A stretch of DNA of 51,074 bases from a virus. The number at the start of each line of letters is the position of its first letter. The first letter of the stretch is position 1. The stretch lies in the IMG/VR virus record IMGVR_UViG_3300039239_000007, positions 1 through 51,074 of that record; one strand, written 5' to 3'. The notes below the pieces were generated by a model. It saw only the letters and a list, made by a program, of their open reading frames with translations. It was not told where the DNA came from and did no database searches. Of this stretch, positions 12,344 to 46,434 are shown in pieces. Position numbers and translations under genes: made by a program.

Positions 12344-13570
12344 TCACCCGCGCCGGGGCTCATCAGACCATGCTTGAACATAGGCCGCCTGACAAAGTTT
12401 CTGCAGTGGCTTCTCGATGTAAATGAATGAGACGTGAGATAGCGCGACCATCGCGACCACCCACACGATGAGGGTGATACCGCTTTCAAATATGGACGTG
12501 CCGATCCCGAAATAAGAAAGTCCGATCAGGATCGCCACTTGGATAGGGAAATGCCATAGGTACGACGAATACGTTGTGTCGCCGAACCACTTGAGTGGCT
12601 TAAGCCGAGCTTGCACTGACGGGCTGAAATCCAGCCATCCAACCAGCAGGACAATTGGCGGGAAAAGGAAAAACTGGACGTTAAAGAACGGCATATGCGG
12701 TAGCTTGCCAGCGCCAACGTAGTAAGTGAACGTTGCCAAGCTCAATATCGCAGGCGCGAAGAGGACAATCGGACTGTCTCTGAATTTTACGAGCCAGTAA
12801 TAGAGGATGCAGCCTGAGAAGAAGAAGAATGCGCAGATATGGAAATTGTTTATCGGAGACTGCTCATTCAGGAGCAGAGACATCGAAACAACGATGAACG
12901 CCGACGTCAGCAGTCCAAATGCAAAGATGCGGCGGGCCAGGAGGAAGAAGACAGCGTAGATCGCCAATTCCACCGAGACTGACCAGATCGGGCCGTTGAA
13001 GTTGACAGCCTCCGTGAAGCCCCATCCGGCAATGAAGAAGAGGTGCCGCACGAAGTCGGTCCCCGAGTTGCCGGCGACCATCGTGTAATGCCCCAAGAGA
13101 TTGAAGCTGACCATCTGTAACAGGCCAATCGTAATCAGCGTGATGAAATGAAGCGGGTAGAGGCGCGCGAAACGCGCGGCGATGAAATCTGAGGCTTTCA
13201 CGCTTTTCCCGCTATACACATGCGAGAACACGAACCCGGAAATAACCCAGAAGCCCCCAACTGCCCAATATCCATATTCGTAAAATGGCATGAGAAGCCA
13301 GTAGAGCGGCTGGTCTGTGCGGACGAATGCGGGATTGTTGTTGAAGAAGTGGTTGTAATGCCAGACGAGAATTACGACCGCTGCGAAGGATCGCAGGACA
13401 TCCATTCCGTAAAAGTGGCGCACTTTCGCGACCGCCGCGTAGTCGGCGGCAGATAGCGGGCGCAGCAAAGAATAATCGGCAGCTAACCCACGCGGCTTTT
13501 GAAAATCCACAGCCTCAACGGACATCGACACCCCCTCCGCATCTGAGTTTATTCGAAAAATCAGATGCAA
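12344..13570 (-). CDS. Acyltransferase family 3 membrane protein (O-antigen/polysaccharide O-acetyltransferase-like)
   Basis: About 10 hydrophobic segments. The N-terminal YGMDVLRSFAAVVILVWHYNHFF matches the acyltransferase_3 signature (R..A...V...H). The longest ORF starts with TTG at 13570; an ATG alternative lies at 13525. Confidence 0.85.
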   Translation of the reverse strand: MHLIFRINSDAEGVSMSVEAVDFQKPRGLAADYSLLRPLSAADYAAVAKVRHFYGMDVLRSFAAVVILVWHYNHFFNNNPAFVRTDQPLYWLLMPFYEYGYWAVGGFWVISGFVFSHVYSGKSVKASDFIAARFARLYPLHFITLITIGLLQMVSFNLLGHYTMVAGNSGTDFVRHLFFIAGWGFTEAVNFNGPIWSVSVELAIYAVFFLLARRIFAFGLLTSAFIVVSMSLLLNEQSPINNFHICAFFFFSGCILYYWLVKFRDSPIVLFAPAILSLATFTYYVGAGKLPHMPFFNVQFFLFPPIVLLVGWLDFSPSVQARLKPLKWFGDTTYSSYLWHFPIQVAILIGLSYFGIGTSIFESGITLIVWVVAMVALSHVSFIYIEKPLQKLCQAAYVQAWSDEPRRG

Positions 13571-16790: not shown

Positions 16791-16851
16791 CCGGACCATA
16801 TTCATCGACGCATCGCCCTCGACCTATGGCCGGGGGCTTTTCTTTACTCGC

Positions 16852-17607: not shown

Positions 17608-17608
17608 A

Positions 17609-19390: not shown

Positions 19391-19572
19391 CAGAGATACC
19401 CCGAAGCGCTTTCTTCAAAGTCCTTTTCTGAATAACCCCCACTATCCCCGTTAATCACAACCGATCCATCAGGCTCGACGCGGATAGACTTGACTTCCAC
19501 GCCGGCCTTCTTCACGGCGCGAATAGCTCGCGACACGGAATCCTCAGTGAAGGCAACGGCACGTCTTCCCAT
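19390..19572 (-). CDS. Hypothetical protein upstream of int (possible directionality factor, unproven)
   Basis: 60 aa. Its TGA shares an A with the int ATG (TGATG). Confidence 0.45.
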   Translation of the reverse strand: MGRRAVAFTEDSVSRAIRAVKKAGVEVKSIRVEPDGSVVINGDSGGYSEKDFEESASGYL

Positions 19573-19724
19573 TATCCCTCGCTCCTTTCAAGCGCCGCTC
19601 GGCCGGCAGACAAAGCAGCATTGATCGCTTCCACAAAGGCAGGTCCGGGACCAAGTTTGCCGCCGTGGCGCTTATGCCAAGTGGCCCAAGCAGCGGCGAT
19701 CATCTCGGGGCTGGCTCTTTCCAT
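19572..19724 (-). CDS. Small hypothetical protein (50 aa)
   Basis: MERASPEMIAAAWATWHKRHGGKLGPGPAFVEAINAALSAGRAALERSEG. Both ends share a nucleotide with the neighbouring genes (TGATG and TAATG). Confidence 0.45.
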   Translation of the reverse strand: MERASPEMIAAAWATWHKRHGGKLGPGPAFVEAINAALSAGRAALERSEG

Positions 19725-20074
19725 CACCGCTCCTCCGATTGCAGGGCGCGGAGGCAGTGCGATAGGGCCAACAATGCATCCACCTCAGAAACCAATTGAG
19801 CCGCACGCGTATAGTCTTTGACGTTCCGCAGCTCGTCTGCTTCTTTCCTTGCCATACCGGCGTGGTGGTCTGCCAAGATAGCAGCCTCCTCCAGCGCCTT
19901 CGCCCTTGCCTCCTTCTCTCGCTTTCCTGCTTCGGATAGGAGTTGGCGGGAACGTTCGCGCTCGGTAAGAATGGCGCGGGCGACAAACATGTGCCAGCGA
20001 TTGTCGTTGTTCCAACGGAATTCAGACACGCATTCGTTTGCAGCCTGCATGATGTCGTCGGGGATATCAGTCAT
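19724..20074 (-). CDS. Hypothetical protein
   Basis: Internal Met MTDIPDDIMQAANE... of ORF 19724..20212. The start overlaps the stop of the upstream DUF551 gene. Confidence 0.55.
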   Translation of the reverse strand: MTDIPDDIMQAANECVSEFRWNNDNRWHMFVARAILTERERSRQLLSEAGKREKEARAKALEEAAILADHHAGMARKEADELRNVKDYTRAAQLVSEVDALLALSHCLRALQSEER

Positions 20075-20858
20075 TGCCGCCCTCCTGCTTTGCGGGTGCT
20101 GCGGGCAGAGGCATCCAGTGGGTTGGTGGATTTTCCCGATACCATCGGATTCCCAAAGACCGCTCATGAGGTCCACCCCAATACGGCTTAGGATTTCTCG
20201 CGAACCTGTCATTCTTAAAGTAGCCGGTGCTTATTGAGGCCCAGTGCTTTTCATCGGCGCGGAAAAGCATAATTATGCTTTCATCCTTCGGCGCTGTCTC
20301 AATCGGCCTCCACCCCGCCACGTCCTGCACCTGTGCGGAGAGCGCGGAGCGAATGCGTGACCGGCACGAAGCCACGTCTTTTGCATCGGCGATACGCCGG
20401 ATTTGCTCGTCCGATAGATTTTCAATCGCAACCGATATCGTTGGCGGAGTGGTGTATAGAGGCTGGATGGCGCAACCCGTATTGCTCTGGTACTCTCGCG
20501 CTGACCGTTCGCTGTGGTCCAATATCCAGCCGCCCGCAAAATCTTTGCACCGCCATGCAACTGGTCCCGCTTCCTTCACTGCCACGGATGGCGCGGGAGG
20601 GGCTGCGTACAGCGGTTCGATCCAGATTTCGTACTCGCTCATGTCATCGTCGGATATCGATGGCTTATGCTTGAAATAACGTCCATCGGGATTGTCTTTA
20701 TCGTGAATAAGGTAGCCTCGCGGCTCCGCAGCGGACAGGGCGGCTTCGAGGGCGGCGCGGATTGCAGGCTCGATCCAGCCCTCAAGCTGAAAACCTTCTG
20801 CGCCTGTGTCCTTCGCGTAAGCTTCAATGGCCCGCTTCATCATCTCATCAGTTACCAT
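20067..20858 (-). CDS. DUF551-domain protein (paralogue 1)
   Basis: The C-terminal GWRPIETAPKDESIIML...NPPTHWMPLPAAP matches the DUF551 signature. Confidence 0.7.
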   Translation of the reverse strand: MVTDEMMKRAIEAYAKDTGAEGFQLEGWIEPAIRAALEAALSAAEPRGYLIHDKDNPDGRYFKHKPSISDDDMSEYEIWIEPLYAAPPAPSVAVKEAGPVAWRCKDFAGGWILDHSERSAREYQSNTGCAIQPLYTTPPTISVAIENLSDEQIRRIADAKDVASCRSRIRSALSAQVQDVAGWRPIETAPKDESIIMLFRADEKHWASISTGYFKNDRFARNPKPYWGGPHERSLGIRWYRENPPTHWMPLPAAPAKQEGGND

Positions 20859-28461: not shown

Positions 28462-29250
28462 CTATCGGAATGGATCCCGGTCTCGTGGCACCAAGCTACG
28501 CCGAGGGATGGGCGACCACTTCGCTATAACGATGTCCGTCACCTTGATCTCGGTATCGTCGTCACCGTCGAGTTCTATATCGTCCTGCCAGTTTTCGTTG
28601 TCGCTCAATGGGCGCAATACCCAGCGGCCGTCTTTCCAGATCATCTGCTTCGCTGTGTATTCAGCCAGCCCGTGCTGCATCCGCTGGACGATAACCAAAT
28701 CACCGTGTTCAGGCTGCATGCCGCCGGCGTGCAATTCGACGCAGTGCAGATACTCGCCATTGTCAGCAATCCGGTTGATGCTGTCTCCCGCGACTCGGTA
28801 GAGACGTTGGCCGTATCCGGGATATTCCGGGGAAGCTGCGACGGGTTCATATTTGCGTTCATAGCGGAATGACCCTTCGCGCCAGACGCCTGCAGAAACC
28901 TCACCGACGACCGGAAGGCCGGCAAGCGGCCTTGATTCCTGCGGCCCCAGATCAGCAAAAGCTTCATCCCCGCCGCGCTCCAGCCAGAAGATACTGACCT
29001 TTGTCGCCTTGGCGATTGCCTCAAGCGTCGATCTCCTTGGAACAACATCGCCTTTTTCCCACTGGGCAACGGCTCCGCGCGTCTTCCCGACGGCGTCGGC
29101 AAGCTGTTGCTGGGTCATCTTCGCTTTGTCGCGAGCGGTGAAAATTCGCTGATTCAGTTCCATGGCGGCAACATATTCCGTCCCGCTATACAAATCTTCG
29201 ATAGTCTCACTATCAGGGGTGCTTGACGGAATGTTAGTTAAACTGTACAT
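28462..29250 (-). CDS. CI-like repressor (XRE HTH + S24/LexA-type peptidase domain)
   Basis: HTH: MTQQQLADAVGKTRGAVAQWEKG. Linker: PLAGLPVVGEVSAG. S24 motifs: AGDSINRI ... AKQM. The longest ORF starts at 29250, inside the operator block. An alternative start MELNQRIF lies at 29163. Confidence 0.9.
   Translation of the reverse strand: MYSLTNIPSSTPDSETIEDLYSGTEYVAAMELNQRIFTARDKAKMTQQQLADAVGKTRGAVAQWEKGDVVPRRSTLEAIAKATKVSIFWLERGGDEAFADLGPQESRPLAGLPVVGEVSAGVWREGSFRYERKYEPVAASPEYPGYGQRLYRVAGDSINRIADNGEYLHCVELHAGGMQPEHGDLVIVQRMQHGLAEYTAKQMIWKDGRWVLRPLSDNENWQDDIELDGDDDTEIKVTDIVIAKWSPIPRRSLVPRDRDPFR
29200..29250. promoter_or_regulatory. Divergent CI/Cro control region: palindrome GATAGT-ctc-ACTATC (29200..29214), CTTGAC -35-like box (29222..29227), operator block AGTTAAACTGTACAT (29236..29250)
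   Basis: The block at 29236..29250 is 14/15 identical to 27884..27898. All three sites share an AGT-N3-ACT core. They lie between the repressor gene and the Cro-like gene. Confidence 0.5.
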
Positions 29251-29283
29251 GTTGCATATTCTCGCTAAACAGGGAGTGCGGAA

Positions 29284-29487
29284 GTGCAGAAGCTGACTGG
29301 AATGGATGCAGTACGAGACAGGATGCCGCTGGCACGCCTGGCGCGCGAACTTGGCATCACCCGCGGCGCTGTAGCGCAGTGGGACAAGGTTCCTGCCGAG
29401 CGCCTCGGTGCTGTTAACCGAGTGACGGGCATTCCGCAGGATGTCCTTCGCCCCGATCTGTTCGCGAGTGCGGAGGCAGCTGAGTGA
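29284..29487 (+). CDS. Cro/YdaS-like HTH regulator (GTG start)
   Basis: 67 aa, LARLARELGITRGAVAQWDKVPAERL. AGGGAG lies 7 nt upstream. Divergent from the repressor. Confidence 0.75.
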   Translation: MQKLTGMDAVRDRMPLARLARELGITRGAVAQWDKVPAERLGAVNRVTGIPQDVLRPDLFASAEAAE

Positions 29488-30440
29488 TGCTCAAAGTAAT
29501 CGAAAACGAACAGATGTCGTTCAATTACGACGCAGTGCCGGCTCCGGTAGCAATTCAAGCGCGTGAAGCAGCCGAGCGTATTAAGCTCCGGCTTCGCCGT
29601 TCCGCAGAAGACATCATCGAGATTGGTCGTGATCTCAACGCGGTAAAGGCGTCGATTGGCCACGGAAAATTTCTGCCATGGATCGAAGCCGAATTTGGAA
29701 TGGGGCGAACAACCGCTTGGAAGTTCATGGCGGTGGCAGATGCATATGGAGCAAAAGTTCACCAAGTGAACAAGTTGGACCCGTCTGCCCTCTATGAACT
29801 CGCAGCGCCAAAAACACCGATCGAAGTCCGCGAAGAAATCGAGAAGATGATTGAGGCCGGTGAGGTTGTCACCAAAGCTACCGTCGCAAAACTCACCGCT
29901 GAGATCGAGTCCGCAAAAAAAGGCCGCGACCTTGCAGACCATGATGCGACTGTCGCGGAGGAAAAGGCAGAGGCGCTTAAGACAGGTCTCGACACTCTCA
30001 ACAAGTCGATTGACGAGAGAGTTTCTGCTGAGGTCGCCAAGGCGTCTGAAAACATCCGTTCCGGTTATGAAGATGAGATCGAGAGGCTCAAGGCCCAGAT
30101 TGAAGACCTTCGGAAGCCGAAGAATATCACCACTATTGATAACGAGACCGGCAACATCATCCAGTTCCATCGCGAGCTGTCCGAAGATGAAGCGGTAGAA
30201 ATAGACGCCTCCGGCGATGAAATGATTGGTGCCGACTTCAATGAGGTCGCTACCGATACCGAGCGGGCTGTTGCCTTCTTTGGTTCTGTTCGCGCCATGG
30301 CAAGCGCGAAAGCCGACCCCTCTGCCGTCTACGCTTACATCGTGAAGCGATCCTCCAAAACTCTCATCGCTGAATACATGGGCATGGTCGATGCCGTGAT
30401 GTCTCAGCTCAAATCTGTGAAGGACATGCACAATGGCTAA
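29484..30440 (+). CDS. DUF3102-domain protein
   Basis: The pattern IIEIGRDLNAVKASIGHGKFLPWIEAEFGMGRTTAWKFMAVA is followed by a long coiled-coil region. Confidence 0.65.
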   Translation: MMLKVIENEQMSFNYDAVPAPVAIQAREAAERIKLRLRRSAEDIIEIGRDLNAVKASIGHGKFLPWIEAEFGMGRTTAWKFMAVADAYGAKVHQVNKLDPSALYELAAPKTPIEVREEIEKMIEAGEVVTKATVAKLTAEIESAKKGRDLADHDATVAEEKAEALKTGLDTLNKSIDERVSAEVAKASENIRSGYEDEIERLKAQIEDLRKPKNITTIDNETGNIIQFHRELSEDEAVEIDASGDEMIGADFNEVATDTERAVAFFGSVRAMASAKADPSAVYAYIVKRSSKTLIAEYMGMVDAVMSQLKSVKDMHNG

Positions 30441-31008
30441 TCGCATAGTGAGTGAGAAAGAGTTCCGTTCTGCTTTCCGGTCTGAGGCAATCGGCATGGC
30501 CGATTTCTCGCAGAAGAAGAACAAGCACGTTTTGGGCATCGGCCCGAGACAGGTGAGCGTCAGCGTTGGCGCCCAGATCGTCAAGGCTTTGATCGACCGA
30601 TTTGCTGCTGACGGACGCACGCTCGACAAGGACATGGTCCACGTCATGAACCCGAAGGGAGCGAGAGCGTACAGCTCGCTGCAATTCAACCAGATCGGCA
30701 AAATGAAACTGGTCCATGGGGCGAATGCCATCGAGACAGTTTGGAAGTCTCTCGGGGATCTCATTCCTGTTGCGCGCAAGGGCGTCACCAATGTCTACGT
30801 CTCCAAAAACGGCGCAACGGACATGGAGCTCGCCGCAATGCGCGATCTGCGCACCGGAAAGCTCAATGCCCGCGTTCTTGCGAATGAACAGCTTGTAGAA
30901 GCGATCGATGAAGCTCGATCAGTACTCGACGGCCGCAACCTGGGAGAAATGTACGCTGCTTCTTGCACGGAGTATTTCCACACCCTGCCGCTAGAAGCTG
31001 CTGAGTAA
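30433..31008 (+). CDS. Hypothetical protein
   Basis: 191 aa with an 8-nt overlap with the upstream gene. Confidence 0.6.
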   Translation: MANRIVSEKEFRSAFRSEAIGMADFSQKKNKHVLGIGPRQVSVSVGAQIVKALIDRFAADGRTLDKDMVHVMNPKGARAYSSLQFNQIGKMKLVHGANAIETVWKSLGDLIPVARKGVTNVYVSKNGATDMELAAMRDLRTGKLNARVLANEQLVEAIDEARSVLDGRNLGEMYAASCTEYFHTLPLEAAE

Positions 31009-31013
31009 GCGAT

Positions 31014-31235
31014 ATGATGGCCGTTCTCCCCATCAATCATGTTCCTCTCACCAGAGCAAAAGGCGCGTTCAAGCCTTGCCTTTGGTGTGGTGGGGAGACG
31101 GCGACCTTTGAAGAAGCGCCAGAAATCAAGCCAGCCAATCATGCCGCTCGCGTTAAGTGCGAAGGCTGCGGTCGCCAGATCGCTTGGGCTTCGGCTCGGC
31201 AGGTGCGCAAGGCTGAAAGGCTCGTAGCAGCATGA
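31014..31235 (+). CDS. Zinc-ribbon protein
   Basis: 73 aa with CLWC ... CEGC pairs. Confidence 0.55.
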   Translation: MMAVLPINHVPLTRAKGAFKPCLWCGGETATFEEAPEIKPANHAARVKCEGCGRQIAWASARQVRKAERLVAA

Positions 31236-31552
31236 TGGACACATTACTCCAATCCCCCAACCGATTCATCCCCGACCGCAGCGCGATCAACGCAATGCAG
31301 GAAGACTGGATTGCCAAGAACGGCGAGCCTCGGAAATTCGAGCGCGGATTCTCCAGCGACTGGGGATTTCTTCAAAACCTCATGGCTCGATACGGCTTCA
31401 AGCTGACCTATCACGGTCGATGCCTCTACTCGATGCACAAGGAAGACTTCCGGGGCGTGCCGAAGCGCATCAGCCGGGAAGAACTCATCAGGCATGTTGA
31501 CGCCGTGCTGATCGAGAATGGCAAGCAGCCTTTCGGATGGAGGAAACCATGA
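31232..31552 (+). CDS. Hypothetical protein
   Basis: 106 aa with an ATGA overlap. Confidence 0.6.
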   Translation: MMDTLLQSPNRFIPDRSAINAMQEDWIAKNGEPRKFERGFSSDWGFLQNLMARYGFKLTYHGRCLYSMHKEDFRGVPKRISREELIRHVDAVLIENGKQPFGWRKP

Positions 31553-31716
31553 CCTCCGCCCGCCTCGAAGCGGCCATACAATCGCACCGCGCTGAATATC
31601 GCCCAGCAATCCGCTGTGACGAGTGCGATCACGTCCTGTCGATTGCCGAGCAGATCGAACACTTCTGCGACCGCTGCAAGAAGCGGCCGGTCGAAATTCG
31701 TGAGGGGAAGCAATGA
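31549..31716 (+). CDS. Small zinc-ribbon protein (55 aa)
   Basis: MTSARLEAAIQSHRAEYRPAIRCDECDHVLSIAEQIEHFCDRCKKRPVEIREGKQ. ATGA overlaps at both ends. Not in the ORF track. Confidence 0.5.
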   Translation: MTSARLEAAIQSHRAEYRPAIRCDECDHVLSIAEQIEHFCDRCKKRPVEIREGKQ

Positions 31717-31949
31717 CTATGATTTTCGACAGGTTTGCCACGATCATTTCTGACTGCTTGGGAGTGCCGCTTGACAGCATAACCATGGCGTCAAACCTCG
31801 AAGCGGATTTGGATGCGGACAGCTTGGACAGCATCGAAATCCTTATGGCTGTTGAGGATGAGTTTTCCATCCAGCTTGAGGATGAAGAAGCTGAGAAAGT
31901 TGAAACCGTTGCGGACGCCGTTCTCCTCATTGAGAGGGCGCTGGCATGA
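31713..31949 (+). CDS. Acyl carrier protein (PP-binding)
   Basis: 78 aa. LEADLDADSLDSIEILMAVEDEFSIQLEDEEAEKVETVADAVLLIE carries the DSL serine attachment motif and the canonical ACP helix pattern. Confidence 0.85.
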   Translation: MTMIFDRFATIISDCLGVPLDSITMASNLEADLDADSLDSIEILMAVEDEFSIQLEDEEAEKVETVADAVLLIERALA

Positions 31950-32062
31950 TCGCCTCCATGCACGCTGATCAGCAACAGTTCCTCGTCTATGTGGCATGGT
32001 TCTTCTCGGCATTCATCGTGTCGGCGGTGCTGGCGCACCTGGCTTTCTCGGGGCGGAAGTGA
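31946..32062 (+). CDS. Hydrophobic mini-peptide (38 aa)
   Basis: MIASMHADQQQFLVYVAWFFSAFIVSAVLAHLAFSGRK. ATGA overlap with the ACP stop; its TGA shares an A with the next ATG. Confidence 0.4.
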   Translation: MIASMHADQQQFLVYVAWFFSAFIVSAVLAHLAFSGRK

Positions 32063-32355
32063 TGGCAGCTCTCAAGCAATATCCACTCCCGGCACTGGTC
32101 ACTCATACGACGGACACCCGCGCCGGCTCTGTCTTCAAAGCCTTATGCGCGGTTTATCCGGGTCAAATTTCTGCAGAGCATCTTATGGCAAGAGCGGGTC
32201 TGTCTTGGCGGGCCGAACCGATCTGGTCTTTCGTGTCGCTCTGCAACGACTTCATCAAAATCAACGAGGCAATCGAACCTTTCGGCTGGCGGGCTGAACG
32301 GTCGGGCGGAACGCCTCGTGACAACTACTGGCTTTCGCCAATCGCGGGTCAGTGA
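32062..32355 (+). CDS. Winged-helix (OmpR/PhoB C-terminal-like) protein
   Basis: Internal Met MAALKQYPLP... of ORF 31996..32355. The ending ...NEAIEPFGWRAERSGGTPRDNYWLSPI parallels that of ORF 33533..33892. Confidence 0.5.
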   Translation: MAALKQYPLPALVTHTTDTRAGSVFKALCAVYPGQISAEHLMARAGLSWRAEPIWSFVSLCNDFIKINEAIEPFGWRAERSGGTPRDNYWLSPIAGQ

Positions 32356-32415
32356 ACCTTTCGTTTCAATCATCACCCTGTCGACACCGGATTAATCGCA
32401 CAGGGAAAATCGAAA

Positions 32416-32790
32416 ATGTCCGAAAATCAGTTGGGAAAATCCGAAATGTCTAGCGTCGATTTTGCGTCAACAGCTTTGCAACGATACGTCGCGCCGAAGG
32501 GCAGCGGCCACAATGTCAAGGACAGGATCACTCGCGCGGCAAGGCGTCTCGGATGGTCTGTCTCTCGCACAAAGGATGTTTGGTACGCGGACCCGCGCGT
32601 GTCGATCTCTGCCGAAGAACTGCGGGTCATCGAGGAGGCAGCAGGTGTCAAATACGGCCGAGCAGAAGCCAGAACTATCGAAGAGCTCATTTCCAAAGCG
32701 GACGCCCTCTTGGCTGGACCTGAGGCGGATTTCTATCGCCCGCTGGTCGATGGCTTCCGCGCATTCATTCGCGCGCTGGATCGCTCCTGA
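32416..32790 (+). CDS. Hypothetical protein
   Basis: 124 aa. A second in-frame ATG at 32446 is preceded by a near copy of the same leader. Confidence 0.6.
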   Translation: MSENQLGKSEMSSVDFASTALQRYVAPKGSGHNVKDRITRAARRLGWSVSRTKDVWYADPRVSISAEELRVIEEAAGVKYGRAEARTIEELISKADALLAGPEADFYRPLVDGFRAFIRALDRS

Positions 32791-32802
32791 ATTGTTCGAC
32801 TG

Positions 32803-32836
32803 ACCGGCGGCGCTTCGGCGTCTCCGGTTTTTATTT
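32803..32836 (+). terminator. Rho-independent terminator
   Basis: ACCGGCGGCGC-ttcg-GCGTCTCCGGT forms an 11-position stem (1 mismatch, 1 G-U) with a UUCG loop, followed by TTTTTATTT. It lies 13 nt after the stop at 32790. Confidence 0.7.
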
Positions 32837-32882
32837 GCCTGAAACCTTCGGAAAAATCCGACGATCGAGAGGAAAATTCAGA

Positions 32883-33437
32883 ATGGCAGCAGCAGTAGGA
32901 CACAACACCGAAAAGGCTGAACGCGAGCGCCGCGTTCTCTTCGCCTTCTACCACAAGAAGGACCGCGATGTCGCGGCCCAGATCAAGGCTCTGCAGGCCG
33001 AGAAGTCATCGAACCGGCAGAACGCCAAGGCTTCCGGCTTCCCGGCGCAGAAGCTCGACCACTACCTCAAATCCTTCAATGCCGAGGATCACCAGAAGCC
33101 GGTCGACAAGCTCAAGAGCGAGCGCGAGAACCTTGAATGGCTCGGCTACATCCCGGCGACGTCCGGCGGCGACTTGCTGGCCCAGATCGACCGTGTCGAC
33201 AATGAGCAGATGATCCAGGCCAAAGGCTTCCATGCTGGTTTGACTGGCCTCGATCGCGTCTCGGGCTACGACGGCGGCTCGGTTGACGACAAGCTCTGGC
33301 TCGAATCCTACGACGCCGGCAAGGCCGAATACGACACTGAAATTCCCGACATCATGGCGCGCATCACTGCGGCGCAGTCGAAGGAGGAAGCGCCGGCGAC
33401 TGGCGATGATCCCTTCGAGCTCGATCAGACGAACTGA
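32883..33437 (+). CDS. Protein with a GapR/DUF2312-like N-terminal region
   Basis: Internal Met MAAAVGHN... of ORF 32835..33437. ...QNAKASGFPAQKLDHYLKSFNAEDHQKPVDKLKSERENLEWLGY parallels the GapR pattern AEAKGNGFDVKVLKKVV...ILDLYLSAIG. Motif-level similarity only. Confidence 0.45.
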   Translation: MAAAVGHNTEKAERERRVLFAFYHKKDRDVAAQIKALQAEKSSNRQNAKASGFPAQKLDHYLKSFNAEDHQKPVDKLKSERENLEWLGYIPATSGGDLLAQIDRVDNEQMIQAKGFHAGLTGLDRVSGYDGGSVDDKLWLESYDAGKAEYDTEIPDIMARITAAQSKEEAPATGDDPFELDQTN

Positions 33438-33477
33438 GTTCCCCCGGCCAGCAGACCTCCCAAGCGCTGGCCCAACT

Positions 33478-33524
33478 AACCCGGTGCGAGAATGTAAAGC
33501 GGACCCCGCACCGGGTTCTTTCTT
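33478..33524 (+). terminator. Rho-independent terminator
   Basis: Perfect 11-bp stem AACCCGGTGCG (33478..33488) / CGCACCGGGTT (33507..33517) with an 18-nt loop, followed by TTCTTTCTT. Confidence 0.65.
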
Positions 33525-33532
33525 CCACGAGG

Positions 33533-33892
33533 ATGGCAATGAACCACATACCTCAGACAAGCCAGTTCTCTTGCCCGTGCTGCGGAAACACCATCGCTAC
33601 GGCGGCTCCCGTCGACATGGTCAAGGACAAGATTTCCCGCGGGCATAACGAACGCATCTTCTCCCTGCTTGCTTCACGCCTAGGTCGCTTCGTTTCCAAG
33701 GATGCGATTGTCGAGCACATCTATGGTGACGACCCCGACGGCGGCCCAGATCGCGCGGACCACGTTGTCTCGGTGCTGGTCAACAAGCTGAAAAACTCCA
33801 TCGAGCCTTACGGCTGGACGATCAAGAGCATCGGTCGTGGTTCTGGCAACAAGGCGCATTACAGCCTGGCGCCGATCGAGGTGACGCCATGA
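33533..33892 (+). CDS. Zinc-ribbon + winged-helix (OmpR/PhoB C-terminal-like) DNA-binding protein
   Basis: CPCC near the N-terminus. The pattern FVSKDAIVEHIYGDDPDGGPDRADHVVSVLVNKLKNSIEPYGWTIKSIGRGSG resembles trans_reg_C domains. Confidence 0.6.
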   Translation: MAMNHIPQTSQFSCPCCGNTIATAAPVDMVKDKISRGHNERIFSLLASRLGRFVSKDAIVEHIYGDDPDGGPDRADHVVSVLVNKLKNSIEPYGWTIKSIGRGSGNKAHYSLAPIEVTP

Positions 33893-34488
33893 GGGTTCTC
33901 GGTCTCGACGTTTCAAAACACGCTGGCTGGGCTCTTTGGGAAACAAAGAATGCTCTCGCATCGATCCGCTGCGACGTGATGGAATTCCCGGCAAAGGCAT
34001 CCATCGAATACTGTGCCGATCAGATGGGGCTTAAGGTGACGAAGCTCATCAAGGACGAGAAGCCGGATTTCATCGTTCTCGAAACCGCGCTCAAGATGAG
34101 CCCCAAGGGTTCGGCCGCAACGGTATCCTCCTGCATGCTGCACGGCGCGGTCTATGCCACGCTCGGAAATTGGGGGAAGCCATGGGGAACGATCAGTGCG
34201 GCTACCTGGCGCAAGATGTTCTTCGGCGCTGGCTACAAGCCGCCACTCGACAATCACGGCAAGAACGACTGGAAGCGCGCCGCTATTGAGCAGTGCGAAC
34301 TGGAAGGCATCATCTTGCCGGCGAAGAAGGCCACCCGAGACAATGCGGCAGAAGCTGCTGCGCTCGCTGTGTGCTGGCGCGGCGTCGAGATCCATGCGGG
34401 CCGGTACCGTCCGGCATTCCAAGACTTCCTGCAGCAGCGCAACGAGCGCGCTCCGTCTGGAGATCTGTTCGCGGGAGTGGGCGCATGA
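33889..34488 (+). CDS. RuvC-like Holliday junction resolvase
   Basis: MRVLGLDVSKHAGWALWE (first acidic motif), FIVLETA, and RDNAAEAAALAVCW (C-terminal Asp motif). Confidence 0.65.
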   Translation: MRVLGLDVSKHAGWALWETKNALASIRCDVMEFPAKASIEYCADQMGLKVTKLIKDEKPDFIVLETALKMSPKGSAATVSSCMLHGAVYATLGNWGKPWGTISAATWRKMFFGAGYKPPLDNHGKNDWKRAAIEQCELEGIILPAKKATRDNAAEAAALAVCWRGVEIHAGRYRPAFQDFLQQRNERAPSGDLFAGVGA

Positions 34489-34490
34489 CC

Positions 34491-34742
34491 TCACTTGTCG
34501 CGAACAAACACATGCGCCTCTTCTGCAGCCTTCAGGAAGGCATTGCGGGCCTTATCGGGTTCCTCTCGGCCTTCCAGCACAGCAAGGCAAATCATCTTCG
34601 CGCGGGTCAGTTTCTCCCCGCTGTCCGTCGGCCATTGGTTCATCAGCGTAAATGCGGCCTCGCTGGTGCTATCAATCGTACGGTACTGGCCGATCTTGCC
34701 GGTCTGAAATGTAACCGGCTTGTTCCATCGTTTCGGGTCCAT
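34491..34742 (-). CDS. DUF982-domain protein (opposite-strand insert)
   Basis: Internal Met of ORF 34491..34883. MDPKRWNKPVTFQTGKIGQYRTIDSTSEAAFTLMNQWPTDSGEKLTRAKMICLAVLEGREEPDKARNAFLKAAEEAHV matches the DUF982 pattern (W..PV...., WP, AR.AF..AA). Confidence 0.7.
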   Translation of the reverse strand: MDPKRWNKPVTFQTGKIGQYRTIDSTSEAAFTLMNQWPTDSGEKLTRAKMICLAVLEGREEPDKARNAFLKAAEEAHVFVRDK

Positions 34743-34806
34743 GACGCGATACCTCCCGGTGCGATTCAACTGATTTCCAATCTCGTTGTTCCAGGAGGTG
34801 CGCATA

Positions 34807-35328
34807 GTGGGCAAGCGATCTGATTTCGAGCGTCGGAAAAACGACGCGTACCAGACACCATCGCCAGCAGTCCTTCCGCTCATCCCTCATCTTCGCGGCA
34901 TCAAGACCTTTGCAGAGCCTTGCTCCGGAGAAGGAAAGCTTGTGAGGGCGCTGGAGAGCTATGGCCTCGTCTGCAATTTCTTCGATGACATCGAGAACGG
35001 TTTTGATGCTCTTACTGACGACAGTCTGGAGCTTGCCCGCTTCGATGCTATTATCACTAACCCGCCATGGACGCGCGAAATACTGCACCCAATGATTCTA
35101 CGCTTCCAGTCAATCGCGCCGACGTGGTTGCTCTTTGACGCCGATTGGGTTCATACGCGCCAAGCTCTGCCGTTCCTCGACCAGTGCAGCCACATCGTCA
35201 GCGTTGGACGGGTGAAATGGATCGAGGACTCTAAGTTCACCGGCAAAGACAATGCAGCATGGCACCGTTTCCATAGCCAGCATGTCGGCGGCCCTCGGTT
35301 CTTCGCCAGAGAGGCGGTGGCAGCATGA
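34807..35328 (+). CDS. N6-adenine (amino) DNA methyltransferase, small gamma-type
   Basis: GTG start 8 nt after AGGAGG. Motifs YQTP, FAEPCSGEG (SAM-binding motif I) and IITNPPW (motif IV). Confidence 0.7.
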   Translation: MGKRSDFERRKNDAYQTPSPAVLPLIPHLRGIKTFAEPCSGEGKLVRALESYGLVCNFFDDIENGFDALTDDSLELARFDAIITNPPWTREILHPMILRFQSIAPTWLLFDADWVHTRQALPFLDQCSHIVSVGRVKWIEDSKFTGKDNAAWHRFHSQHVGGPRFFAREAVAA

Positions 35329-36773
35329 ACGCCATGCCACAAGAATTCGCTGCCATACCGGCGAACATCGACGCTGAACAGCAATTGATCGGAGCCTTGC
35401 TGATCAACAACGAAGCGCTGGAAGCTCTTCCGAGCTCGTTTGACGATCGGCATTTCTTCGAGCCGTTTCACCAGTCTGTGTTTCGGGAAATAAAGCGCCT
35501 TGTGGAATTGGGGAAGAGCGCAAACCCTGTGACGGTGAAGGCGGGCGTTGATACCGGCGCCATGATCGGAGACCTCACAACTTCTCAATATCTGGCGCGC
35601 ATGGCGTCCGAGGCCGTTTCCATCATCAACGTTCCCGGATTTGCCCAAGCGATCACATTCGATGCCATGCGCCGCGGTCTCATTTCCGTTGGTGAGCAGG
35701 CGGGGGAGCTTGGCTTTCAATGCGGCGACGAACTGACGTTCATCGAACAGGCAGACGCTCTTAGAGAACAATTTGAGCGCATCGTGCGCGGTCTGGAATC
35801 GGATGATGAACTGACCTTGGCGGATGCGGCCGATCGCGCCCTGAGCGCTACCAACAACGCTTTCCGTGGCAATGGGCATACAGGTGTCGATTATGGCTTC
35901 TCGCCTCTGTCGGGCCTGATCGGGCCAGCAATGCCAGGACAGCTTATCGTGATCGGCGGCGGCACCAAGCAGGGCAAGTCAACGCTCATCGAGCAGATCG
36001 TCATGGGTGCCGCGATGAACGGCCACCCGGTCTGGGTTTATTCCGGGGAAATGCAGGGTGAAGAGCTTGCCCACCGCGCGCTGTCCCGCATCACCGACAT
36101 TCAGGCGTGGCGCCAGATACGCGGAAAGGTTTCGGAATCCGAAGTCGAGAAGCTCATGATCGCCAAGACCAACGCCATGACATGGCAGGAGCGGGTAATC
36201 ATCCGCGACAAACCGATGACGCTGACACAGATAGAGCGATCCGTCACCAACTTCACCGCCCGTCATCCCGGGGGCATGGCTATAGTCGACCATATCGGCC
36301 TCGTGGAGCGCGACAAGAGCAACATGCGGCTCACCGATCAGGATTTCGGCCCGCTCGTCACACGCACGCTCAAGATGCTGGCGAACAAGGCCTCGCTACC
36401 GATCTTCGCGGCGGCACAGCTAAAGAAGAACACCTTCGCGATCGAGGACCGCACCATCACCCGCAAGACCTTCGAGCAGGCCATCAACCGCCGGCCGAAA
36501 TATGCGGACATCCTTGGTTCCGTCGAGAAAGACGCCAACCACGTCATCATTCCATTCCGAGCCGAGCCGATCCTGCAGGAGCTTGAGCCGGTCGAAGGCT
36601 CCATCAACTACGGAGATTGGGAAGCCGTCATGAGCCAAGTGAAAGACAAGGCAGAAATTATCCTAGCCCTGTCCCGCCATACCCGCTGGCCACAGCGAAA
36701 GGAGGTTGGCTGGAACGGCGGCAAGACCATGTTCACCGAACTCAATCCCCACGATCAGGGGAGGATGTTCTGA
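35325..36773 (+). CDS. dnaB: Replicative DNA helicase DnaB
   Basis: 482 aa. N-terminal PANIDAEQQLIGALLINNEAL, Walker A GGGTKQGKST, RecA-like C-terminal domain. Confidence 0.92.
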   Translation: MNAMPQEFAAIPANIDAEQQLIGALLINNEALEALPSSFDDRHFFEPFHQSVFREIKRLVELGKSANPVTVKAGVDTGAMIGDLTTSQYLARMASEAVSIINVPGFAQAITFDAMRRGLISVGEQAGELGFQCGDELTFIEQADALREQFERIVRGLESDDELTLADAADRALSATNNAFRGNGHTGVDYGFSPLSGLIGPAMPGQLIVIGGGTKQGKSTLIEQIVMGAAMNGHPVWVYSGEMQGEELAHRALSRITDIQAWRQIRGKVSESEVEKLMIAKTNAMTWQERVIIRDKPMTLTQIERSVTNFTARHPGGMAIVDHIGLVERDKSNMRLTDQDFGPLVTRTLKMLANKASLPIFAAAQLKKNTFAIEDRTITRKTFEQAINRRPKYADILGSVEKDANHVIIPFRAEPILQELEPVEGSINYGDWEAVMSQVKDKAEIILALSRHTRWPQRKEVGWNGGKTMFTELNPHDQGRMF

Positions 36774-37822
36774 TGGAAGTCCTAGACCTTTTCAGCGCGG
36801 CGGCCGGTGGCTGGTCGCTCGGAATGCACAGGGCCGGGTTCAAAACCATTGCGGCCTGCGAAAACGTCGCGTGGCGCCGCGCAATCTATCAGGAGAACAA
36901 CCCGGATGTCCTTATCTATGACGATGTCTGCACACTCACAGCAGATCGAATTATTCGAGATACCGGACGTTTCCCACCCATCGTCGTCGGAAGCCCCCCG
37001 TGCCAGGACATCTCCAGCGCCAACACAAAAGGCAAAGGCGTCGAAGGGGAAAGAAGCGGCCTCTACTTTGAAGCCATCCGCATCATCGGAGAGGGCCGAC
37101 CTCGTTGGTTCGCTCTTGAAAACAGCTCTAATCTCCGAACTCGGGGAGCTGACGCCGTCCTCGCTGCACTGGAAGCACTCGGCTACACCTGCTGGACGTT
37201 CGTGGTACGTGCTGGGGACATCGGAGCCAATCACGAGCGGCCCAGAAGTTGGATCATTGGCTGCGATCCAGAGCAAGTTGCCGACGCCGATGGCTTCAGA
37301 CGGGATGAAGGATGGAGCCGGGGGTGGTGCGGGTTTGACTTATCCATTTCGAATGATTCTTTCCACGCCGCGGGCCTCAGACATGAAAGCTGGCGGTCAC
37401 GGAGCGCCAGGACGGACCGGTACAGTGAGACACATGTTGCACGAATCGTACCTACCGACTCCTCGGGCTTCGGAGGCCTACCACGGGCCAGATATGACGT
37501 CGCACAGCCCGAACATCAAGGCGCGTCTCCAGAACAACGATCCGAGGTGGCTGGGAGCAATGGCTTTGGCCGAAATTCTTCAGAACCATGGGCTTCGTGG
37601 AACGGCGGCATTACCAATCACATACGGCTGGATGATGGGCTTTCCACCTGGCTGGCTGGCACGCGCATTGCAGTCGGCGGTCCGCGCGGGACATCTGCAG
37701 CAAGTCTTATCGTTGAAGCGTTCGGTGACGCAGTCGTCCCGCAAATCCCGGAAGCAATAGGGAAAGCCATCTTGCGCACGGAAAGAGCCTTGGCGGCAAT
37801 TTATGAAAGGGCGTCGGCATGA
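36773..37822 (+). CDS. DNA (cytosine-5) methyltransferase; central part possibly encoded in the overlapping +1 frame
   Basis: Frame 2 carries DLFSAAAGGWSLG (I), GSPPCQDIS (IV), FALENS (VI), HERPRSWIIG (VIII) and FGDAVVPQIPEAIG (X). TGATG coupling to the dnaB stop. See the finding on frame 3 (36807..37760). Confidence 0.8.
   Translation: MEVLDLFSAAAGGWSLGMHRAGFKTIAACENVAWRRAIYQENNPDVLIYDDVCTLTADRIIRDTGRFPPIVVGSPPCQDISSANTKGKGVEGERSGLYFEAIRIIGEGRPRWFALENSSNLRTRGADAVLAALEALGYTCWTFVVRAGDIGANHERPRSWIIGCDPEQVADADGFRRDEGWSRGWCGFDLSISNDSFHAAGLRHESWRSRSARTDRYSETHVARIVPTDSSGFGGLPRARYDVAQPEHQGASPEQRSEVAGSNGFGRNSSEPWASWNGGITNHIRLDDGLSTWLAGTRIAVGGPRGTSAASLIVEAFGDAVVPQIPEAIGKAILRTERALAAIYERASA
37648..37660 (+). 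repeat. Tetranucleotide tract CTGGCTGGCTGGC, (TGGC)3, inside the C5-MTase gene
   Basis: Read directly from ...tttccacCTGGCTGGCTGGCacgc... Confidence 0.9.
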
Positions 37823-38172: not shown

Positions 38173-38507
38173 AGAAGTACGCCACTATCCATTTCGCTTG
38201 CAACGATGGCGACGACGGTTCTTTCGCTGGGAAAGTGTGTGCGGCCTCCTACGGGGAGAATGAACTTGAGACGATCGGCATGGGCGACATCAAGTTCACC
38301 GCCGGCGAAGACTTCATCCGCATTCATCGTCGGACCTTCAAGGTTATTGGCCGGTCGTATTGGGTTGGCAACTGGTGCTGGGACTCGTTCCGCATGACGC
38401 GCAGCGAGGCGAAGAAGCTTTTGGCTTGTCTTCGCAAGAACGGATGGAGGTGTACGCACGGCCGTGTCCACTTCGGCAGATGGATGGATAAGGAACAAGC
38501 AGCATGA
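38169..38507 (+). CDS. Hypothetical Cys/Trp-rich protein
   Basis: 112 aa with an ATGA overlap. Confidence 0.6.
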   Translation: MKKYATIHFACNDGDDGSFAGKVCAASYGENELETIGMGDIKFTAGEDFIRIHRRTFKVIGRSYWVGNWCWDSFRMTRSEAKKLLACLRKNGWRCTHGRVHFGRWMDKEQAA

Positions 38508-38992
38508 AGCGACCAAACGTATACCTCGACCTTGACGGCGTCATGGCTGACTTCGACGCTCACTTTCCGGCCCTGTTCGGTGTCGATCACCGTACGATGC
38601 TTGATGACGACATGTGGGCGACAATCAATGCCCACCCTTCGTATTTCCGAGACATGCCGCAGTGCCCCGGCGCAAAAGAGTTCTTCGACCGGATATCCTG
38701 GCTGAACCCGATCATCCTGACGGCGTGCCCAAAGTCCAATTACGCCCACGTAGCGCGGCAGAAGCGCGAATGGGTGAGGGAACACCTTTCCAGCACCTGC
38801 CATATCCTCCCGGTCATGGGTGGGCGCAATAAGCCTCTCTTCATGCACTCGCGTGGTGACATCCTCATCGATGACTTTGAGCGCAATATCAAGGCTTGGC
38901 GCGAGGAGGGCGGCTTTGGCATCCTTCACACGGATTTTGCAACGTCTCGCGATATGCTGGAGCGTGAAATGGTGCGGAGCGCCGCAGCATGA
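38504..38992 (+). CDS. HAD-family 5'(3')-deoxyribonucleotidase-like protein
   Basis: N-terminal YLDLDGVMADF (DxDxV nucleophile motif) and a later ILIDDF motif. 162 aa, the typical NT5C size. Confidence 0.75.
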   Translation: MKRPNVYLDLDGVMADFDAHFPALFGVDHRTMLDDDMWATINAHPSYFRDMPQCPGAKEFFDRISWLNPIILTACPKSNYAHVARQKREWVREHLSSTCHILPVMGGRNKPLFMHSRGDILIDDFERNIKAWREEGGFGILHTDFATSRDMLEREMVRSAAA

Positions 38993-41614: not shown

Positions 41615-42109
41615 ATGCCAGTTCTGAAAAACCCAAGGCACGAGAGGATGGCGCAAGGTCTCGCCAAGGGTCTGTCGGCAGAGAAGGCGCACGTCGAAGC
41701 CGGGTTCAAGCAGAACAGGCACAACGCGGCCGCTTTAGCACGTGAGGAACACATTTCAACACGCGTGACCGAACTGCAGTCCAAGGCCGTCAAGAAGGTC
41801 GAGATCACCGTAGACAGCCTCGCACAGGAGCTTGAAGAGGCTCGCGCTATTGCCCTAGCCGAGAAGCAGTCGAGCGCGGCTGTGAGCGCCACAATGGGCA
41901 AGGCGAAGCTCTTTGGTTTGGGGGTAGAGAAGCGGCACCTTAGTGGGACTCTGCAGGTCATCAACATAACGGCAAAGCAACTGGAAGCGCTGAACGACGA
42001 TGAACTTGCCGCTCTCGAAACAGCATATCCAGTTCTCCAGAAGCTCGGGCTTATCGCTGCAGGCGATCCGGGCGGAGAGACAGGCGAGGGAAGCGAACAA
42101 GAGGATTGA
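41615..42109 (+). CDS. terS: Terminase small subunit (P27/Terminase_2-like)
   Basis: MPVLKNPRHERMAQGLAKGLSAEKAHVEAGFKQNRHNAAALAREEHISTRVTELQ is the typical N-terminal HTH pattern. Lies directly upstream of terL. Confidence 0.8.
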   Translation: MPVLKNPRHERMAQGLAKGLSAEKAHVEAGFKQNRHNAAALAREEHISTRVTELQSKAVKKVEITVDSLAQELEEARAIALAEKQSSAAVSATMGKAKLFGLGVEKRHLSGTLQVINITAKQLEALNDDELAALETAYPVLQKLGLIAAGDPGGETGEGSEQED

Positions 42110-43667
42110 AGAAGAGGCGGCGCAGGCTGGCGTCTCCCTTGCATCCTTCATCCGCGGTGGCTGGCATGTACTGGAGCCGGGTAGGGCATTCGTCCACGGC
42201 TGGCACATCGACGCAATATCGGATCATCTGAAGTCGATCACTGATGGCGGGCTAAGCCGCCTCATCATCAACGTTCCGCCCGGCACGATGAAGTCTCTGA
42301 CCGTCGGTGTGTTCTGGCCGGCGTGGGAGTGGGGGCCGCTGAACAAGCCTTGGCTTCGCACGATTGCGACGGCCTATAAGGAAGGTCTGGCCAAGCGAGA
42401 CAACATCAAGGCTCGGCGCCTGGTGCAGTCGCAGTGGTTCAGGGATAGGTGGGGTAGCCAGTTCAGCCTCATGCCGGATCAGAACTCGACGCTCAAGTTT
42501 GAGAATGATCTGGCTGGGTTCAGAGCGGCCATGTCTTTCCAGTCTCTGACTGGCGAGCGCGGTGACCGGGTGATCATTGATGACCCTCTATCCGTCGACA
42601 TGGCAAAATCTGACGCTGACAGGATCACAGCAAAGGAAACCTTTCTAGAGGCTGTGCCGTCTCGTCTGAGCGACCCTGAGACTTCGGCTATTGTCATTGT
42701 CATGCAGCGCCTGCACGAAGAAGACACGACCGGCGTAGCACTGTCAAAGAACCTTGGGTACGAGCACCTGATGCTCCCCATGGAATTCGAGCCAGAGCGG
42801 CGCTGTTACACTGTGGTGAAGCCTTCATTCCATGACGAGAAGCCGCGCTTGGGCCGGTACGACGCTGGAAAGCAGGTCTGGTACTTCGAAGGCGACGACA
42901 TCCCCGAGAACCGGAGAGAGTATGTCGAAAAGTCGGAACGGAAAGCGGTTTACTCTCAAGATATTCGGACGGAAGAGGGCGAGCTTCTATTCACCAAGCG
43001 CTTCTCTCGTGAAGTGGTGGAGCGCGATAAGATATCGCTCGGCTCGGTAGGGCACGCGGGACAAAACCAGCAGCGACCGGCGCCACGCGGTGGTGGCATG
43101 TTCAAGCGGGCATACTTCAGCATCGTGAAGGCTATCCCGGCGGGGACGGAGTTTGTCCGAGGCTGGGACTTGGCGGCAACACAAGGCGGAGATGGCGCAA
43201 GAACGGCAGGTGTTAAGATCGGTCGCATGCCAGATGGCAGGTTCGTCATCGCCCACTGTGTGGCCGATAGACTTAGCCCTGCTGGAGTCAGGGCGCTGAT
43301 AAAGAACACAGCTGAGCAAGATGACGCTGCGCATTCTGACGGGTGCAGGGTCTCCCTACCAAAAGACCCAGGGCAGGCAGGTAAGGACCAATCGCAGCAG
43401 ATGATTGCCATGCTGGCCGGTCACAGCGCCTCCGCTACGCCTGAAAGCGGAGACAAGGTGACCAGAGCAGAGCCGTTCGCTGCACAGGCAGAGGCGGGCA
43501 ACGTGGTTATGCTCGAAGGTCCGTGGAACGGAGACTACCTCGATGAGGTCGAAGTGTTCCCGGCTGGTAAGCAGAAAGACATCGTGGACGCATCGTCCCG
43601 AGCATTCAATGAACTGGTGCAGCCAACGGCGCAGGTCGCCATGTTCCTGACATCACGTCACCGATAA
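42000..43667 (+). CDS. terL: Terminase large subunit
   Basis: 555 aa with WHIDAISDHLKSITDGGLSRLIINVPPGTMKS (ATPase P-loop region) and a C-terminal nuclease-like domain. The only ATG upstream of the conserved N-terminus is at 42000, 110 nt inside terS. Confidence 0.88.
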   Translation: MNLPLSKQHIQFSRSSGLSLQAIRAERQAREANKRIEEEAAQAGVSLASFIRGGWHVLEPGRAFVHGWHIDAISDHLKSITDGGLSRLIINVPPGTMKSLTVGVFWPAWEWGPLNKPWLRTIATAYKEGLAKRDNIKARRLVQSQWFRDRWGSQFSLMPDQNSTLKFENDLAGFRAAMSFQSLTGERGDRVIIDDPLSVDMAKSDADRITAKETFLEAVPSRLSDPETSAIVIVMQRLHEEDTTGVALSKNLGYEHLMLPMEFEPERRCYTVVKPSFHDEKPRLGRYDAGKQVWYFEGDDIPENRREYVEKSERKAVYSQDIRTEEGELLFTKRFSREVVERDKISLGSVGHAGQNQQRPAPRGGGMFKRAYFSIVKAIPAGTEFVRGWDLAATQGGDGARTAGVKIGRMPDGRFVIAHCVADRLSPAGVRALIKNTAEQDDAAHSDGCRVSLPKDPGQAGKDQSQQMIAMLAGHSASATPESGDKVTRAEPFAAQAEAGNVVMLEGPWNGDYLDEVEVFPAGKQKDIVDASSRAFNELVQPTAQVAMFLTSRHR

Positions 43668-43676
43668 GAGGCACCG

Positions 43677-45047: not shown

Positions 45048-45049
45048 TC

Positions 45050-45310
45050 ATGGCTCCGCGGAACCAGTTTCCGTCGCGTGGTTCGCTTGACAGCGCCACC
45101 GATGCGTTTTCGATCGCGCCCAGCGATACCGTCGACCTTACCGACGTCCCGCGCGCTATCTGGGTGGGAACGGGCGGCAATATCGCCCTGGCAATGGCAT
45201 CTGGGAATGTGACGCTTATGAACGTCGCTGACGGGACTTTGCTTCCTGTCCGCCCAAGCAGAGTTCGGGCGACCGGCACGACTGCCTCCAATATAGTGGG
45301 GCTGCTGTGA
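45050..45310 (+). CDS. Hypothetical small head-module protein
   Basis: 86 aa between the portal and scaffold/protease genes. GAGGAA lies upstream. Confidence 0.6.
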   Translation: MAPRNQFPSRGSLDSATDAFSIAPSDTVDLTDVPRAIWVGTGGNIALAMASGNVTLMNVADGTLLPVRPSRVRATGTTASNIVGLL

Positions 45311-46431: not shown

Positions 46432-46434
46432 ACG

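Follow-up and report, generated by a model that had tools for sequence, protein, structure and literature searches.

In the window, the whole 51,074-nt stretch of viral DNA analysed here, the gene at 31713..31949 encodes a genuine AcpP-type acyl carrier protein (ACP). Orphan phage ACPs are already catalogued (PHROG 5934), and the gene described here is a new, rare clade among them. Comparison of its codons with those of its relatives indicates that it is kept under purifying selection. The favoured role, to which about an even chance is given, is that of a second, divergent carrier modulating the acyl-ACP network of the host at an early stage of lytic growth. The gene and its signals are as follows.

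31713..31949, plus strand: orphan AcpP-type acyl carrier protein gene (ORF with ATG start, 78 aa)
31821..31823, plus strand: predicted 4'-phosphopantetheine attachment codon AGC (Ser37), in D36-S37-L38-D39 (sequence)
31702..31707, plus strand: Shine-Dalgarno-like GAGGGG, inside the upstream ORF and 5 nt before the ACP ATG (sequence)

An earlier note on this DNA had described the 78-aa frame on the plus strand at these coordinates, locked by ATGA overlaps to both of its neighbours. The frame translates to the very sequence quoted there, and both overlaps are found. The stop codon TGA of the zinc-ribbon ORF upstream (31714-31716) falls within the ACP start, and the ACP stop (31947-31949) is overlapped by the ATG at 31946 of a 38-aa hydrophobic ORF. 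The first ATG is supported as the ACP start, since the aligned relatives share the N-terminus M-S/T-x-I-F-D-R-F. The protein is strongly acidic, with 20 acidic and three basic residues and a net charge of about -17; 20 acidic residues are also counted in the AcpP of E. coli and of Sinorhizobium.

The attachment serine that had been recognized in a DSL motif is Ser37 in D-S-L-D, and the matched profiles are of the AcpP type. The PF00550 search proposed along with that reading gives a match to the Pfam PP-binding family over residues 7-70 (E = 1.2e-9, 38.7 bits for a cut-off of 20.8). NCBIfam ACP models reach E-values of 1e-20 to 1e-22. TIGR00517 (acyl_carrier) is passed with 73.4 bits (cut-off 70.45), as are two PRK00982 subfamily models (79.4 versus 71 and 79.1 versus 66); three stricter AcpP equivalogs score below their cut-offs (65.3 versus 92, 63 versus 106 and 51.7 versus 84). 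The ACP models outside the AcpP set stay well below theirs, including PRK06508 (37.8 versus 83), PRK05350 (32.8 versus 65), PRK08172 (46.7 versus 76), AcpM and others. PHROG 5934, 'acyl carrier protein', is matched at E = 1.3e-16, and ACPs in the PDB at E = 8e-16. The best solved relatives are ACPs of type II FAS with 41-51% identity, the closest structures being those from Thermus (1x3o), Toxoplasma (2qnw), S. aureus (4dxe), E. coli and Brucella (2n57). The E-values of the Pfam, NCBIfam and PDB matches place the ACP identity beyond chance.

The predicted fold agrees with that of solved ACPs. An AlphaFold2 model, built on a shallow four-sequence alignment (pLDDT 76.8), has helices at residues 4-16, 40-51, 57-61 and 66-77 and a short turn at 29-32. 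Helix II starts at residue 40, with D36-S37-L38-D39 directly before it. A Foldseek search aligns the model with solved FAS ACPs at a TM score of 0.85 and an rmsd of 1.6-2.0 Å. Residues D36, S37, L38, D39, M45, A46, E48, E50, D57, T65 and V66 are the same in all seven clade members and in E. coli AcpP, where they lie around the attachment serine and the partner-recognition surface of helix II.

No enzyme that would prime, load or unload such a carrier appears beside it. In a Pfam scan of the genome (74 predicted proteins plus extra frames, E ≤ 1e-3), no ACPS/PPTase, ketosynthase, AMP-binding ligase, FabD/malonyl transferase or thioesterase was found, which, within the limits of profile searches, confirms the absence of partner enzymes claimed in the earlier note. 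The only acyl-transfer enzyme in the genome is the following.

12344..13570, minus strand: Acyl_transf_3 (AT3) membrane O-acetyltransferase (PF01757; PHROG 3333/6705, O-acetyltransferase, O-antigen-acetylase)

The AT3 gene sits between tail-fibre genes and the muramidase gene, on the opposite strand, and resembles a lysogenic-conversion gene. The suggestion that the ACP serves the phage acyltransferase has lost most of its appeal. As the sole acyl-transfer enzyme in the genome, the AT3 protein is the one candidate to which the ACP could act as a dedicated acyl donor, for modification of host surface polysaccharide. This role is, however, very improbable. The enzyme matches O-acetyltransferase and O-antigen-acetylase families, and AT3 O-acetyltransferases use acetyl-CoA rather than acyl-ACP. 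The enzyme is encoded on the other strand, among late genes for tail and lysis, whereas the ACP gene belongs to the early lytic operon. Furthermore, the two do not co-occur in two IMG/VR relatives: contig L024, with the only close AT3 relative in IMG/VR (84% identical), has no match in the ACP scan, and the contig with the 78% identical ACP gave no AT3 match, in what was an exact-peptide-pattern scan and hence weak evidence.

The two ends of the window (1-127 and 50948-51074) are identical, as in a circular assembly, leaving 50,947 unique bp, which matches the 50.9 kb given in the earlier note. The window start is permuted into the late structural region, so that the run of genes at 42000-48000 (terminase, portal, capsid) continues across the start into the tail genes. 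The structural and lysis set comprises a large terminase, portal, major capsid protein (DUF6260), tail genes, muramidase and the AT3 O-acetyltransferase. Also encoded are a tyrosine integrase, a RecT-like protein, a PDDEXK protein, CI, Cro, DnaB, a RuvC-like resolvase and two DNA methyltransferases. The same integrase and early region are found integrated in a 1.04-Mb contig (L016), where NCBI assigns the flanking host proteins to Agrobacterium sp. CCNWLW32 or A. tumefaciens. The integrase, the CI/Cro pair and this integrated copy with its Agrobacterium flanks identify the window, by its sequence, as a temperate Agrobacterium phage. Its nearest isolated phages, as judged by the large terminase (41-47% identity), infect Sinorhizobium, Rhizobium and Erythrobacter.

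Several other features of the phage and its integration site deserve mention. In L016, at 11050-20715, the prophage integrase gene borders directly on IMS (UmuC/DinB-like) and S24 (UmuD-like) gene fragments. Beyond these fragments are genes for a DUF2971 protein, a RelA/SpoT-domain protein and an FtsH-like AAA-M41 protein, a stretch that is possibly a defence or stress island. No tRNA was found at the L016 prophage junction. Within the early-right operon of the window, a DUF982 gene (34491-34742, minus strand) lies on the opposite strand, a position that is kept in L001; the DUF982 family is largely confined to Rhizobiales. Features of the replication region (34786-35328, 36773-37822 and 38504-38992, plus strand) include an NPPW-motif DNA methyltransferase (PHROG 799), a second methyltransferase, which begins at the DnaB stop codon and is identified by synteny with a Pfam DNA_methylase gene in L001, and an NT5C-type deoxynucleotidase.

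The surroundings of the ACP gene are those of a lytic early operon next to the lysogeny switch.

28462..29250, minus strand: CI-type S24 repressor, divergent from cro (Pfam)
29284..32355, plus strand: cro-proximal run of nine early genes, tightly packed or overlapping (ORF map)
29284..29487, plus strand: cro (Cro/P22_Cro; Pfam)
31549..31716, plus strand: zinc-ribbon ORF, CxxC...CxxC, 55 aa, with an alternative start at 31537 (ORF; 55 aa also in L001)
31946..32062, plus strand: 38-aa single-pass hydrophobic peptide, ATGA-joined to the ACP gene (maximal 17-residue hydropathy 2.29)

The chain runs in the order cro, DUF3102, a 191-aa protein, a Lar-like zinc ribbon, a 106-aa protein, the zinc ribbon, the ACP, the transmembrane (TM) peptide and a 97-aa protein. 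The zinc-ribbon ORF at 31549..31716 has weak zinc-ribbon and HypA-like Pfam matches, below the cut-offs. Around the ACP gene, no promoter- or terminator-like site rises above shuffle expectation, and a moron architecture with signals of its own was rejected. A place in a cro-proximal overlapping chain with no private promoter or terminator suggests early expression. PADLOC gave no meaningful match for the ACP and nine neighbours, and a link to defence or anti-defence was rejected. Megablast of 29000-35000 against 50,697 phage records returned no DNA relative. Natural variants without the ACP were not found either, all nine contigs that carry the same DUF3102 protein sharing the neighbourhood.

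Other members of the operon have features of their own. Three genes 5' of the ACP gene, at 31014-31235 on the plus strand, a 73-aa CxxC...CxxC protein has a weak match to the Lar-like restriction-alleviation PHROG 599 (E = 6e-5). Small early proteins encoded at 32062-32355 and 33533-33892, and possibly at 31232-31552, carry a C-terminal 'EP(F/Y)GW' wing motif. Pairwise similarity among them is weak (E = 1e-4 over 31 residues), and one has a weak OmpR-type Trans_reg_C match; the proteins are possibly paralogues, each a free-standing winged-helix DNA binder, encoded on either side of the ACP gene.

Relatives of the ACP were sought by word-indexed and exhaustive searches of billions of proteins. 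Besides the window protein, the clade comprises P0003 (78%), an IMG/VR copy (78%), P0004 (74%), P0023 (60%), P0143 (49-51%) and P0005 (47%). The family is very rare, with seven sequence clusters among 5.8 billion. Its profile sets it apart, with members scoring 122-144 bits and all cellular ACPs at most 104 bits. Flanking DNA is available for five relatives (L007, L008, L009, L010 and L012); P0143 lies on a 681-bp contig with no flanks. In all five, the ACP gene is part of a temperate-phage early operon and, wherever the contig reaches these genes, it is found a few genes 3' of a cro-like gene and ahead of DnaB. The upstream neighbour changes with the lineage, from the zinc ribbon to a 161-aa protein, GapR (L012), an 82-aa protein and a 45-aa protein. 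The zinc-ribbon ORF, absent upstream of the ACP gene in L007, L009, L010 and L012, was accordingly rejected as an obligate ACP partner. The upstream gene differs in every lineage, and no neighbour qualifies as such a partner.

Purifying selection is read from a dN/dS of 0.10-0.31 versus the five relatives (0.10-0.19 in 11 of the 13 computable pairs), at a dS of about 0.3 to above 1. A ratio of at most 0.31 with synonymous sites near saturation implies that the gene is translated and constrained. The attachment serine is unchanged in all seven clade members. That the ORF is a non-functional passenger, or is untranslated, is scarcely credible. The great rarity of the clade would fit such a gene, but the dN/dS values over that range of dS would not, nor would the invariance of the functional residues, the good Shine-Dalgarno motif and overlap coupling to the upstream gene, or the retention of its place in the operon in five more lineages with flanking DNA.

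A non-metabolic use of the protein is suggested by some of its structural matches, which include ACP bound in MukBEF (9gm6), in NFS1-ISD11 (8tvt and 5wlw) and in the Ycf2-FtsHi motor (8xks). Here the acidic ACP fold would act as a binding subunit or cofactor of a phage or host complex, for example in replication, recombination or counter-defence, much as cellular ACP does in several complexes. Such a role agrees with the position of the gene between cro and the replication genes, close to proteins that bind DNA, namely GapR in L012 and, in the window, zinc ribbons and winged-helix-like proteins. It is nevertheless unlikely: no neighbour is conserved across lineages as a partner, PADLOC gave no matches, and a serine motif so strictly conserved is explained at least equally well by a carrier.

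The gene downstream invites another proposal. The 38-aa peptide has no Pfam or PHROG family match, and a 39-aa homologue is present in L008. More generally, a single-TM ORF of 29-62 aa is found at most three ORFs 3' of the ACP gene in six of six lineages with context, the window being joined by these.

L008, 330-627: single-TM ORF
L007, 1836-2017: single-TM ORF
L010, 3794-3913: single-TM ORF
L012, 2469-2657: single-TM ORF
L009, 1512-1661: single-TM ORF

As background, such small single-TM ORFs account for about 3 of the 81 genes at other positions in three of the loci. It is tempting to propose that the ACP works with the small downstream membrane peptide, for example tethered beside acyltransferases, and the contrast between six of six lineages and that background speaks for it. 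Yet the membrane peptides represent three or more unrelated families, and adjacency is not constant, with one non-membrane ORF in between in L007 and L010 and two ORFs in L009. Of five other phage ACPs, four have no small membrane ORF nearby, and early operons are rich in small ORFs generally. The pattern was spotted post hoc and serves as a lead only; a joint function of ACP and peptide is improbable. Equally a long shot is the corollary that the ACP is not a metabolic helper at all but forms a small early-infection module with the peptide, in which a membrane-held, host-primed carrier intercepts host acyl-ACP-dependent acyltransferases or delivers an acyl group to a phage-specified target. 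Such a membrane arrangement, if true, would mean that phages can take over envelope lipid synthesis in a novel way.

The favoured reading, a second carrier acting in the host network, follows the canonical features of the protein. The ACP would be made as the lytic programme starts. Host AcpS would convert it to the holo form, as expected from a serine and a helix-II recognition surface that are canonical. Host FabD and the type II FAS enzymes would then load it; dependence on host AcpS and FAS is suggested by a genome with no recognisable priming or loading enzyme. Strict conservation of both the serine and the enzyme-recognition surface argues for a holo form that engages enzymes. Once loaded, the protein would work as an additional, divergent carrier within the acyl-ACP network of the host, and acyl flow would be shifted during infection, with effects on membrane lipid, lipid A and other acyl-ACP-dependent products, instead of merely being served by extra AcpP. 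Simple supplementation fits poorly with a sequence only 41% identical to that of a host protein so abundant. This abundance of host AcpP also counts against the favoured view, since the benefit of a second carrier becomes doubtful. The rarity of the clade further implies that most related phages dispense with the ACP.

Published work on ACP dosage gives a precedent for strong effects in the cell. Overproduced ACP halts growth of E. coli by inhibiting glycerol-3-phosphate acyltransferase, apo-ACP is the stronger growth inhibitor, and a foreign acpP alters the fatty-acid profile, according to the review PMC3896788 and to Keating et al. 1995, cited in PMC8557913. The phage ACP might likewise be an inhibitor for host takeover, exceeding the capacity of AcpS or binding host enzymes unproductively as a decoy. 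The sequestered AcpS, FAS or acyltransferase partners would leave membrane synthesis and growth arrested early in infection. The growth inhibition in E. coli, more marked with apo-ACP, is in line with this, as are a protein only 41% identical to host AcpP that keeps the recognition helix, and an early operon of small genes of the host-takeover type, including the weak Lar-like restriction-alleviation match. However, an active apo form would make the serine dispensable, and the serine is kept throughout, by all seven clade members and by five further phage ACPs. Moreover, the known target, PlsB, is not the acyltransferase of alpha-proteobacteria, which use PlsX/PlsY instead. The toxicity precedent acts via PlsB and, by this analogy, may not transfer to them. 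Inhibition is therefore a possible but rather doubtful role, and modulation by a loaded second carrier is preferred.

What is at stake reaches beyond one phage. Orphan ACPs recur in unrelated phages and are filed as auxiliary metabolic or host-takeover genes. The present case lends itself to study: the phage is compact and temperate, its lytic switch is clear, it occurs as a prophage in genetically tractable Agrobacterium, and the gene is one short ORF for which Ser37Ala is an obvious point mutant. If the ACP redirects or blocks host lipid synthesis, fatty-acid carrier mimicry joins the takeover strategies of phages; if it merely supplements AcpP, it is an ordinary auxiliary gene.

Among known systems, one of the nearest is housekeeping AcpP of type II FAS. 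The phage protein shares with it the length of 78 aa, the 20 acidic residues, the D-S-L serine, the helix II surface and the four-helix fold, with a TM score of 0.85 to the E. coli, Brucella, Thermus and apicoplast ACPs. It differs in sequence, being 41% identical to Sinorhizobium AcpP and 42% to that of E. coli, and in context, the host gene lying in a fabD-fabG-acpP-fabF cluster and the phage gene in an early operon. E. coli AcpP has Pro55 and helix-I lysines, and their absence from the phage clade could mean different partners. With respect to cellular ACPs at large, the phage protein is about equally far (45-56% identity) from those of many phyla, and a scan of genome contigs with it found only distant cellular ACPs (36-46% identity). 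The 41% identity to Rhizobiaceae AcpP and the roughly equal distance to many phyla indicate that the phage ACP is not a recent capture from the host. Among the closest matches in the representative library are three proteins (P0042, P0049 and P0095) in which an AcpP-like domain is fused to STAS or bacterial Ig-like (Big_3_5) domains. As a clue to function these fusions were rejected, being uninformative on the phage protein.

The dedicated ACPs of rhizobia, NodF, AcpXL and RkpF, had been brought in by the earlier note as pathways that the phage protein might divert. They resemble it as extra ACPs beside AcpP in Rhizobiaceae, primed by the host PPTase. In contrast, they sit beside dedicated partner enzymes (ketosynthase, dehydratase or acyltransferase), of which the phage ACP has none in the window, and the Agrobacterium host is not a nodulating rhizobium. 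Tblastn against rhizobial plasmids and mislabelled rhizobial chromosomes hit one place per record, which in the record inspected (Sinorhizobium sp. K101) is the AcpP gene of the fab cluster, at 41% identity. By the models tested, in which AcpP-type profiles score best and the others fall below cut-off, by tblastn and by gene context, the phage ACP appears not to be a specialised rhizobial ACP, and the proposed kinship with NodF, AcpXL and RkpF loses its ground.

Other phage ACPs provide the last comparison, and they lessen the novelty that the earlier note had implied, as PHROG 5934 and several isolated phages are already annotated. ACPs are annotated in Erythrobacter phages R6L and ZS04, Ralstonia phages phiRSL1 and RP13, Vibrio phages helene and eugene, and Olleya Harreka_1, Burkholderia BCSR5, Brevundimonas Bajun and Cronobacter GAP32 phages. 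No experimental study of any phage ACP was found in the searched literature, and their function is treated as unclear (PMC5463345 and PMC8224337). The R6L paper states that phage ACP homologues are known but that 'their function remains unclear' (PMC5463345), and a survey of Rhodobacteraceae prophages reports acpP in eight of them, as an auxiliary metabolic gene (PMC8224337). A 2026 preprint describes a predicted interface between a phage ACP and host FabZ, and another preprint describes ACP modules in jumbo phages.

The Rhodobacteraceae prophages are alpha-proteobacterial, like the phage in the window, and at least one has acpP as its only auxiliary metabolic gene (PMC8224337). Three of them carry fabG-acpP-fabF in host order, as if host DNA had been captured or the prophage boundaries misplaced, whereas the window phage has no fab genes and an ACP far from host AcpP. 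The examples of PHROG 5934 come closer: vB_EliS_R6L gp32, phiRSL1 ORF083 and the proteins of helene, Harreka_1 and Bajun are likewise stand-alone ACPs. In all five isolated phages inspected, the orphan ACP lies among hypothetical genes with no annotated partner enzyme, and its serine is intact. In sequence, by contrast, other phage ACPs are remote from the window protein, with 32-51% identity in tblastn at E-values of 4e-3 to 6, and R6L gp32 reaches 56% over only 43 residues. The clade also differs in lifestyle and gene position. Its members belong to temperate phages of alpha-proteobacteria, an assignment resting on Agrobacterium for the window and on GapR and DUF982 in the relatives, and lie in cro-proximal early operons, whereas several of the other phages with an ACP are large lytic or jumbo phages.
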